Source of the DNA: Escherichia coli O127:H6 str. E2348/69
GTDB taxonomy: Bacteria > Pseudomonadota > Gammaproteobacteria > Enterobacterales > Enterobacteriaceae
DNA length: 64,000 bases
Direction: 5' to 3' (one strand)
Assembly (NCBI RefSeq): GCF_000026545.1
Contig: NC_011601.1
Shown here: in pieces, positions 35,601 through 38,600 of the stretch
Layout: each line of letters begins with the position of its first letter
Position numbering within the stretch: position 1 is the first letter of the stretch
Program-made: the position numbers

Positions 35601-38600
35601 CGGATTGCTCTGGTGTGCGAAGGCGGCGGACAGCGTGGAATTTTCACGGCTGGCGTGCTGGATGAGTTTATGCGCGCGCAGTTTAATCCTTTCGATCTTT
35701 ATCTCGGCACATCTGCCGGGGCGCAGAACCTCTCGGCGTATATCTGCAATCAGCCCGGTTACGCGCGCAAAGTCATCATGCGTTACACCACAAAACGCGA
35801 ATTTTTCGATCCATTGCGCTTTGTCCGTGGAGGAAATCTTATCGATCTCGACTGGCTGGTGGAGGCCACCGCAAGCCAGATGCCGTTGCAAATGGATACC
35901 GCTGCGCGGTTATTTGACAGCGGCAAATCGTTTTATATGTGCGCCTGTCGTCAGGATGACTATGCGCCGAATTACTTTTTGCCAACTAAACAAAACTGGC
36001 TGGATGTGATTCGCGCCTCCAGTGCGATACCTGGCTTTTATCGTAGCGGAGTGTCGCTGGAAGGTATTAACTACCTGGATGGTGGGATCAGTGATGCGAT
36101 CCCGGTTAAAGAGGCGGCAAGGCAGGGAGCAAAAACGTTGGTCGTCATCCGCACTGTGCCGTCACAAATGTACTACACGCCGCAGTGGTTCAAACGCATG
36201 GAACGCTGGCTGGGTGACAGTAGCCTGCAGCCGCTGGTCAATCTGGTGCAGCATCATGAAACAAGCTATCGTGAGATTCAGCAATTTATTGAGAAACCAC
36301 CGGGCCAGCTGCGGATATTCGAAATTTATCCGCCGAAGCCATTGCATAGTATCGCGCTCGGCAGTCGGATTCCGGCGCTGCGTGAAGACTATAAACTTGG
36401 ACGTTTATGCGGGCGTTATTTTCTGGCAACGGTCGGTAAATTATTGACTGAAAAAGCGCCGCTGAGCCGCCATCTGGTGCCGGTGGTGACGCCGGAGTCG
36501 ATCGTTATTCCGCCTGCGCCAGTCGCCAACGATACGCTGGTTGCCGAAGTGAGCGACGCTCCGCAGGCGAACGACCCGACATTTAACAATGAGGATCTGG
36601 CTTGATTTGCCGTTTTATCGACACCCACTGCCATTTTGATTTCCCGCCGTTTAGTGGCGATGAAGAGGCCAGCCTGCAACGCGCGGCACAAGCGGGCGTA
36701 GGCAAGATCATTGTTCCGGCGACAGAGGCGGAAAATTTTGCCCGCGTGCAGGCGTTAGCGGAAAAATATCAACCGCTGTATGCCGCATTGGGCTTGCATC
36801 CTGGTATGTTGGAAAAACATAGCGATGTGTCTCTTGATCAGCTACAGCAGGCGCTGGAAAGGCATCCGGCGAAGGTGGTGGCGGTGGGGGAGATCGGTCT
36901 GGATCTCTTTGGCGACGATCCGCAATTTGAGAGGCAGCAGTGGTTACTCGACGAACAACTGAAACTGGCGAAACGCTACGATCTGCCGGTGATCCTGCAT
37001 TCACGACGCACGCACGACAAACTGGCGATGCATCTTAAACGCCACGATTTACCGTGCACTGGCGTGGTTCATGGTTTTTCCGGCAGCCTGCAACAGGCCG
37101 AACGGTTTGTGCAACTGGGCTACAAAATTGGCGTAGGCGGGACTATCACCTATCCACGCGCCAGTAAAACCCGCGATGTCATCGCAAAATTACCGCTGGC
37201 ATCGTTGTTGCTGGAAACCGACGCGCCGGATATGCCGCTCAACGGTTTTCAGGGGCAGCCTAACCGCCCGGAACAGGCCGCGCGGGTGTTTGCTGTGCTT
37301 TGTGAGTTACGCCTGGAACCCGCAGATGAAATTGCCGAAGTGTTGCTTAATAACACGTATACGTTGTTTAACGTGCCGTAGGCCGGATAAGGCGTTCACG
37401 CCGCATCCGGCAGTTGGCGCACAATGCCTGATGCGACGCTGACGCGTCTTATCATGCCTACAAGTCTGTGCCGAACCGTAGGCCGGATAAGGCGTTCACG
37501 CCGCATCCGGCAGCTGGCGCACAATGCCTGATGCGACGCTTGACGCGTCTTATCATGCCTACAGGTCTGTGCCGATCCGTAGGCCGCATCCGGCATGTCA
37601 CAAATATAGCGCCGGAAATATTAACCGGCTCACCCCGCGCTCCCGTAACGCATCAGCCAGTTGTTCCACATCCTCCGGTGTGGCGCTCGGCCAGCTTTGC
37701 GCCTCGCCATACACGCCGTGGGCATGAAACGCGTTCAGGCGTATCGGAACATCGCCAAGTCCCTTGATTAACGCCGCCAGTTCTTCGATGTGTTGCAAAT
37801 AATCCACCTGGCCAGGGATTACCAGCAAACGCAGTTCCGCCAGCTTACCTCGCTCTGCCAGCAAACAGATGCTGCGCTTGATCTGCTGATTATCGCGTCC
37901 GGTTAATTGCTGATGACATTCGCTCCCCCACGCTTTGAGATCGAGCATTGCGCCGTCACACACCGTGAGCAATTTTTCCCAGCCGGTTTCGCTCAACATG
38001 CCGTTACTGTCCACGAGGCAGGTGAGATGGCACAGTTGCGGATCGTTTTTGATGGCAGTAAACAGCGCCACCACAAACGGCAACTGGGTCGTGGCTTCGC
38101 CGCCGCTTACCGTTATCCCTTCAATAAACAGAACCGCTTTGCGGACATGGTTAAGCACCTCGTCCACGCTCATGGATTGCGCCATTGGCGTAGCATGTTG
38201 CGGACACATCTTCAGGCAGGTATCACATTGCTCGCAGACAGCCGCGCTCCACGCCACTTTGCCGTCGACAATCTGCAACGCCTGATGCGGACACTGCGGC
38301 ACGCACTCTCCGCAATCATTACAGCGCCCCATCGTCCACGGATTGTGACAGTTTTTGCAGCGCAGATTGCAGCCCTGCAAAAACAGAGCCAGACGACTGC
38401 CTGGCCCGTCAACGCAGGAGAAGGGGATAATCTTACTGACTAAAGCGCATCTGCTGTTCATGGCTTATCACGCGCGGCTGGCGTTCCAGAATACGAGTGT
38501 TGCGTGCGGCTTCTTCTCCCAGCCAGGTAGTGTTGGTGCGTGAACCTTCGGCGCGATATTTTTCTAAATCCGACAAACGCACCATATAACCGGTAACGCG

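Follow-up and report, generated by a model that had tools for sequence, protein, structure and literature searches.

BIME-2 elements, a family of bacterial interspersed mosaic elements (BIMEs), join z2 and y repetitive extragenic palindromes (REPs) through a short S linker; at any one locus their tandem copies are well conserved, and the number of copies differs from strain to strain (PMC3333891). BIME-2 arrays, their tandem structure and their variation in copy number between strains have been known for decades (summarised in PMC3333891). The long L linker with a site for integration host factor (IHF) belongs to BIME-1, not to BIME-2 (PMC3333891). The REP325 array is built of Y-linker-Z2 units, and nucleoid association, HU binding and DNA condensation have been reported for its RNAs (PMC4550694). 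Here we describe the repeat array between the genes yjjV and yjjW of Escherichia coli O127:H6 str. E2348/69, which lies in a stretch of 64,000 nucleotides of contig NC_011601.1 (hereafter the window; all positions refer to it); the 801 bases around the array match the E. coli E2348/69 chromosome at 100%. Very probably this array is a canonical BIME-2, consisting of two tandem Y-S-Z2-s units and a terminal half-Y, and represents an allele of an old minisatellite, built up at the site by local amplification, whose function would be that of its family. What follows demonstrates its anatomy and family, its local origin and age, and the polymorphism of its copy number. BIME-2 arrays with strain-variable copy number have already been published; the array is real but ordinary, it matters little beyond bookkeeping, and its orthologue in K-12 is simply the four-unit version.

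Anatomy and family membership of the array

The array extends from 37376 to 37595 and comprises two units in head-to-tail order, of 100 and 101 nt, with a 17-nt half palindrome after them (Table 1). The original prediction, made from the sequence of the window, had placed at 37379-37600 a tandem duplication of a roughly 97-bp unit, each copy with two REP palindromes and the whole followed by a partial REP. Three comparisons confirm a tandem direct repeat at that place: offsets 100 and 101 stood far above background in an offset scan (73 and 64 matches per 100; median, 32), a direct-repeat search recovered segments of 65 nt and 54 nt recurring at spacings of 100 and 101, and a gapped alignment of unit 1 (37376-37475) with unit 2 (37476-37576) gave 97 identical positions of 101, the four differences being three substitutions and a single 1-nt indel in the Z2 loop. 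The small number of differences between the copies, the presence of two palindromes (Y and Z2) in each unit and the trailing partial REP at 37579-37595 likewise agreed with what had been predicted. The unit length did not, as the period is 100/101 nt and the predicted value is off by 3-4 nt, and the boundaries also required correction, with the repeat starting in the last codons of yjjV at 37376 and ending at 37595.

Tandem Repeats Finder left the array unreported, both in a standard run and with three parameter sets. Since the three comparisons above all recover the repeat, the missing report is a false negative and not evidence against the array, and it illustrates that Tandem Repeats Finder is able to miss a 100-nt repeat of 2.2 copies and 96% identity. 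The single mid-unit indel divides the signal of these 2.2 copies between offsets 100 and 101.

On the + strand each unit reads Y (GTAG and a 13-bp imperfect stem, 35 nt), a 12-nt linker, an inverted Z2 ending in CTAC (37 or 38 nt) and a 16-nt linker, so that the array as a whole reads GTAG-Y ... Z2-CTAC ... GTAG-Y ... Z2-CTAC ... GTAG-halfY. The Y palindrome folds as a 7-bp and a 4-bp stem around a symmetric 2-nt internal loop, Z2 also has internal mismatches, and an entire Y-S-Z2 unit can alternatively form one long hairpin of -46.5 kcal/mol. Transcripts of both strands of the array fold strongly, at -122.6 and -128.3 kcal/mol (z about -6.9 and -6.75). The defining features of BIME-2 are all present, namely y and z2 palindromes that alternate in orientation (head-to-head, then tail-to-tail) on GTAG/CTAC feet, a two-base mismatch in the stem, 12-nt S linkers, and tandem copies that are 96% identical and vary in number between strains.

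The array occupies the whole of the 216-bp gap (37382-37597) between yjjV and yjjW. These genes are convergent, as had been predicted, with yjjV (+) ending at 37381 and yjjW (-) ending at 37598; yjjI stands behind yjjW. The yjjV stop codon TAG (37379-37381) is shared with the first Y palindrome, where it forms the last three bases of the GTAG foot, and thus the first stem begins at the very next base, 37382. On the other side, the half-Y comes within 2 nt of the yjjW stop codon TGA (37600-37598), and the first complete hairpin on the yjjW strand, with its GTAG at 37562, is 35 nt away from that stop codon. The RefSeq record of MG1655 has no repeat feature annotated in the yjjV-yjjW gap, and a search of the accessible literature for the array as a described BIME or as a named marker for variable-number tandem repeat (VNTR) typing or multiple-locus VNTR analysis (MLVA) found none.

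Membership of the family is also reflected in matches to the Rfam RF02564 (naRNA4) model, which was built on the Y-linker-Z2 units of REP325 between yjdM and yjdN (PMC4550694) and has a gathering score of 59.5 bits. On the + strand, the sense strand of yjjV, both units match the model from end to end (positions 1-77 of 77) and exceed this score; their minus strands reach 54.7 and 51.5 bits, below it. These matches raise the alternative that the array is primarily a naRNA4-like cluster of nucleoid-associated RNA (naRNA) genes, in which read-through from yjjV would be processed to two Y-linker-Z2 RNAs that, with HU, would bridge cruciform DNA and condense the nucleoid. This has been reported for REP325, whose RNAs are thought to arise by transcription from the gene upstream and for which HU-mediated condensation required two hairpins, Y and Z2 (PMC4550694). 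The Rfam model, however, also accepts unrelated generic BIME-2 units, one in the window at 29629-29711 and one between phnE and phnD, both at about 70 bits; a match therefore indicates membership of BIME-2 and is not evidence of a dedicated RNA gene. In addition, the REP325 seed units score 95-111 bits against 76-79 in the window and have different linkers, a range of 0-11 units with null alleles argues against a required RNA gene, and the yjjV-yjjW locus is not mentioned in PMC4550694. We therefore consider a dedicated RNA gene cluster quite unlikely.

Table 1. Positions and basis of assignment of the array components, the RNA-model matches and the flanking genes in the window.
Feature	Position	Strand	Basis
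BIME-2 unit 1, 100 nt (CC, Y, S linker, Z2 and most of the tail-to-tail linker)	37376-37475	+	direct repeat, alignment
Y palindromic unit 1 (GTAG and 13-bp stem, 2-nt internal mismatch; REP orientation on + strand)	37378-37412	+	exact match; hairpin -20.9 kcal/mol, z -4.6
Head-to-head S linker 1, GTTGGCGCACAA, locus-specific	37413-37424	+	allele comparison, alignment, linker scan
Z2 palindromic unit 1, inverted, ends CTAC, 37 nt (loop 1 nt shorter than that of unit 2)	37425-37461	+	hairpin -14.8 kcal/mol, z -5.0
Tail-to-tail linker 1, AAGTCTGTGCCGAACC	37462-37477	+	allele comparison
BIME-2 unit 2, 101 nt	37476-37576	+	direct repeat, alignment
Y palindromic unit 2, identical to Y1	37478-37512	+	exact match
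Head-to-head S linker 2, GCTGGCGCACAA	37513-37524	+	allele comparison
Z2 palindromic unit 2, 38 nt	37525-37562	+	minus-strand hairpin -15.2 kcal/mol
Tail-to-tail linker 2, AGGTCTGTGCCGATCC	37563-37578	+	allele comparison
Half-Y, GTAG and right arm only (GTAGGCC^GCATCCGGCA, caret at the deletion); 18 nt, GGATAAGGCGTTCACGCC, missing	37579-37595	+	fold z -0.30, not beyond chance
Rfam RF02564 naRNA4 match 1 (Y-linker-Z2, yjjV sense strand)	37381-37458	+	79.1 bits
Rfam RF02564 naRNA4 match 2	37481-37559	+	76.5 bits
yjjV, TatD-family metal-dependent hydrolase, 259 aa	36602-37381	+	open reading frame; NCBIfam NF008522, 573 bits; RefSeq annotation
yjjW, YjjW-family glycyl-radical enzyme activase, 287 aa	37598-38461	-	open reading frame; TIGR04041, 398 bits

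Copy number, local origin and age

The number of units at the locus was determined with a query made of the two flanks only, such that the span of each hit gives the insert length, in 59 E. coli genomes taken at even steps down the ranking. In this sample, whose members are not phylogenetically independent, whole units numbered zero in three genomes, one in eight, two in 16, three in six, four in five, five in 20 and six in one, making five the commonest state and two the next. Over all alleles compared the range is 0-9 units in E. coli, with intergenic lengths of 29-899 bp, and reaches 11 in a sister species; the active REP/BIME dynamics that had been proposed for the locus are thus borne out by comparison across strains. 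K-12 (MG1655 and BW25113) has four units in a 419-bp gap. The longest of these E. coli arrays, in strain L16-131 (L026, 3810-4708), has nine units in 899 bp, and the order of its unit variants reveals that a block of about four units has been duplicated, the join being a hybrid 82-nt unit that carries a 19-nt deletion. At the other extreme, the null allele of Z142-7 (L003) retains a single complete Y composed of the left half of unit 1 and the terminal half-Y, through a 183-bp deletion between right arms, and a second kind of null allele, in CS5L, retains a single half-Y. The unit variants occur in different orders in different strains, a shuffling that repeated misaligned exchange would be expected to produce. 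We propose that the array would grow and shrink by whole units through misaligned recombination or slippage between them, with occasional microhomology joins; the REP-associated transposase TnpA_REP may contribute.

The ends of the array also vary. In the type A junction, found in the window, K-12, several strains and all three sister species, YjjV has 259 aa, ends in NVP, and its stop codon lies within the first complete Y. In the type B junction, YjjV has 260 aa, ends in NVRG or SVSG and has its own stop codon; TTTACCCT and a half-Y come next, and these arrays carry a half-Y at both ends with complete internal Ys (L004, L008-L011, L013, L017-L019 and L026). At least two further junction variants occur, in L006 and L020. 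The 3' end of yjjV itself (window 37373-37381) is polymorphic among the compared loci L004, L006, L008-L013 and L017-L020. The half-Y is always the product of the same internal 18-nt deletion of Y and is conserved at the array end in nearly all alleles.

TnpA_REP cleaves at C^T (the caret marking the cut) in the motifs TGCC^TGAT and (G/T)(G/T/A)CC^TAC on inverted REPs (PMC3333891). Each unit of the array has the 5' GTAG, the stem mismatch, TGCC^TGATG at the head of Z2 and TGCC^TACA at its tail, all on the + strand, and with both cleavage motifs in each unit the array is, judged by its sequence, a plausible substrate of this enzyme. The half-Y as a footprint of cleavage and rejoining by TnpA_REP was considered and rejected: its deletion junction, on the minus strand ...GATGCGGC^CTAC and ambiguous within GGC, is not one that two C^T sites can make, and there is no CT on the + strand inside Y.

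The origin of the array at this site is recorded in its linkers. In a scan of bacteria and archaea for the head-to-head linker pattern CCGGCAGYYGGCGCAYAATGCC, with each species represented by one genome, matches were confined to E. coli, three other Escherichia species and two contigs from unrelated metagenome-assembled genomes, and every Escherichia match sits between yjjV and yjjW. The two metagenomic matches (L021 and L023) are chance occurrences inside GC-rich coding DNA with no REP. At the yjjV-yjjW site, Escherichia sp. E1V33 has two units, E. whittamii four and Escherichia sp. MOD1-EC7003 (L025, 3227-4352) 11, and the species-representative genome of E. coli has one unit with a variant junction. 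The differences between the window units and those of REP325 are concentrated in the linkers. With linkers specific to the yjjV-yjjW site, the array grew there by amplifying its own unit.

The age of the two-unit state follows from strains EC21GDE043 and FDAARGOS_1287, in which the flanks differ by about 3-5% from those of the window. In both strains unit 2 is identical to the window copy, and unit 1 has the same four unit-specific states (GTTGG/GCTGG, CTGAC/CTTGAC, CAAG/CAGG and GAA/GAT). As these states are common to strains so diverged, the two-unit state predates the divergence of these lineages, and the sequences of the two-unit strains together with the sister-species arrays show that the duplication is ancient. 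The original prediction had instead taken the similarity of the copies as the mark of a recent event. The corresponding alternative, in which a single BIME unit was recently duplicated in tandem in the E2348/69 lineage alone, can draw on units that differ at only four positions and on Y palindromes that are identical in E2348/69, with which some recent homogenisation of unit 1, by conversion or recombination, is possible. It is nevertheless very unlikely, given that the four differences are matched position for position in the diverged strains, that two-unit alleles make up 16 of the 59 sampled genomes, and that multi-unit arrays stand at the same site in three other Escherichia species. The identity of the two Ys may itself be the recent element, in that the Y of unit 1 is identical to that of unit 2 in E2348/69 and differs from it at three positions in EC21GDE043 and FDAARGOS_1287. 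A further alternative to local duplication is that TnpA_REP inserted two mobile BIME units independently. In vitro this enzyme cuts single-stranded BIME DNA, joins it again and is able to assemble several REPs (PMC3333891), and on the + strand each unit offers it both of the published motifs (TGCC^TGAT and TGCC^TACA). Two such insertions are nevertheless extremely unlikely, as the linkers are locus-specific, common to both units and all alleles at the site, and their pattern occurs at no other locus in the species-representative genomes.

The flank-only query also returned a result of its own. In the comparison of window 37100-37900 with 5,426 E. coli genomes, identity was 90-95% in 4,726 of 5,423 and at least 99% in only 3, and the yjjV and yjjW ends are therefore unusually diverged. 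This suggests deep allelic lineages or recombination at the locus.

The locus offers a clean natural series (0, 1, 2, 3, 4, 5, 6, 9 and 11 units, at least three junction types, and hybrid units) that could help in understanding how such arrays gain and lose units, or be used in typing.

Candidate functions and opposing evidence

What the array does can at present be approached through its family. Gyrase cleaves a subset of BIME-2 elements in vivo, where its sites are over-represented, with a preference for y REPs and independently of transcription (PMC6379681), and BIME-2 elements are found mostly at borders between supercoiling regions (PMC10592627). By analogy, the Y palindromes of the array would be preferred gyrase targets and the BIME-2 elements would act as barriers to the diffusion of supercoils; gyrase targeting here, which had also been suggested in the original prediction, is plausible on these grounds. 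Protection of 3' ends and partial attenuation are established roles of REPs (see the references in PMC12306157). The very strong folding of both transcript strands makes such a role plausible for this array, where hairpins at the 3' ends of both convergent transcripts would protect against 3' exonucleases or partly attenuate read-through.

A further possibility concerns translation. According to Liang, Rudd and Deutscher (2015), as summarised in PMC12306157, ribosomes stall and translation is lowered where a REP begins less than 16 nt downstream of a stop codon. The distance from stop codon to stem is 0 nt for yjjV in type A alleles. It exceeds that limit for yjjW (35 nt) and for yjjV in type B alleles, in which the stop codon lies 39 nt upstream of the first complete hairpin. 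With its first hairpin starting directly at the yjjV stop codon, the array may thus lower the translation of YjjV. Two bolder proposals extend these observations, one that the locus is a second naRNA locus whose copy number (0-11) would tune nucleoid compaction between strains, the other that the junction polymorphism would be a switch of YjjV expression. We regard either as unlikely; if the switch were true, only type A alleles (e.g., those of E2348/69 and K-12) would be subject to REP-dependent ribosome stalling.

Binding of IHF and intrinsic termination, which concern the remaining roles that had been suggested for the interval, are not supported. It is extremely unlikely that the array is a BIME-1/RIP element to which IHF binds, or an intrinsic terminator that serves the convergent genes in both directions: such a reading has in its favor the location between convergent genes and GC-rich stems with strong predicted folds, but BIME-1/RIP elements pair Y with Z1 across a long L linker containing an IHF site, whereas here the partner is Z2 and the S linker 12 nt long, the IHF consensus WATCAANNNNTTR has no match in 37376-37600 (its five matches in the window are all elsewhere), and neither strand of 37382-37597 has a stem with a T-tract directly after it, the gap containing only hairpins without one. 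The interval is accordingly best annotated as a BIME-2 array, and neither as a recent duplication nor as an IHF site.

Several points weigh against our preferred interpretation of the locus as an old, locally amplified BIME-2 array with the functions of its family. Null alleles without a complete unit occur in about 3 of the 59 sampled strains, and their existence means that any function is dispensable. The half-Y deletion at both ends of type B arrays is unexplained by simple slippage of units, and the half-Y also misfits the published C^T rule of TnpA_REP. On the functional side, gyrase cleavage, transcription, RNA processing and translational effects would apply at this locus by extension from the family, and yjjV and yjjW are not mentioned in the accessible part of the supplementary text to the gyrase map (PMC6379681).

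Comparison with described systems

Other repeats and RNA genes were noted in the window. Three tandem tRNA genes at 29166-29490 (-) were reported by Tandem Repeats Finder with a period of 121 and 2.7 copies and gave three Rfam tRNA matches. Directly after them stands a BIME-2 Y-linker-Z2 unit (29626-29711, +) that scores 70.3 bits with the naRNA4 model, above the gathering score. A lone, slightly degenerate Y-type palindromic unit with 3 mismatches to the Y of the array lies at 55543-55577 (-). A match to the SymR antitoxin RNA at 4450-4526 (+; RF01809, 88.9 bits against a gathering score of 61) implies a symE/symR type I toxin-antitoxin locus. The 222-bp RRS elements (PMC10592627), which lie near dusC and lysO and contain a G-quadruplex, were ruled out as an identity for the array.

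Among the described families, BIME-2 in the nomenclature of Gilson and Bachellier (as given in PMC3333891) accounts for the array without any departure from the definition, from the alternation of y and z2, the GTAG/CTAC feet and the stem mismatch to the short linkers and the intergenic position at gene 3' ends. Two features are specific to the locus, the terminal half-Y and the yjjV stop codon set within the first GTAG. The IHF-binding BIME-1 elements (RIP/RIB) are similar in their Y palindrome and their position at the 3' ends of transcription units, and differ in pairing Y with Z1 across a long, conserved L linker with an IHF site and in occurring as single copies, as opposed to the tandem Z2-containing units with 12-nt linkers found here.

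The REP325 (naRNA1-6) array of E. coli K-12 (PMC4550694) is likewise a tandem of Y-linker-Z2 units of about 100 bp that have the same orientation relative to the upstream gene, and its modules are close to those of the window, with Y identical at 34 of 35 positions and Z2 nearly identical. Both linkers differ, however, and identity between the units of the two arrays is 80-82% compared with 96% between the two window units; REP325 moreover has six units between co-directional genes, in contrast to two units between convergent genes in the window. Also close is the orthologous array of K-12 MG1655 (4,614,261-4,614,679), which has in common with the window array its site, junction type, linkers and terminal half-Y, and each unit of which passes the naRNA4 model. 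The two alleles are distinguished by the number and kind of their units, with four units of different variants (419 bp) in MG1655 and two (216 bp) in E2348/69.

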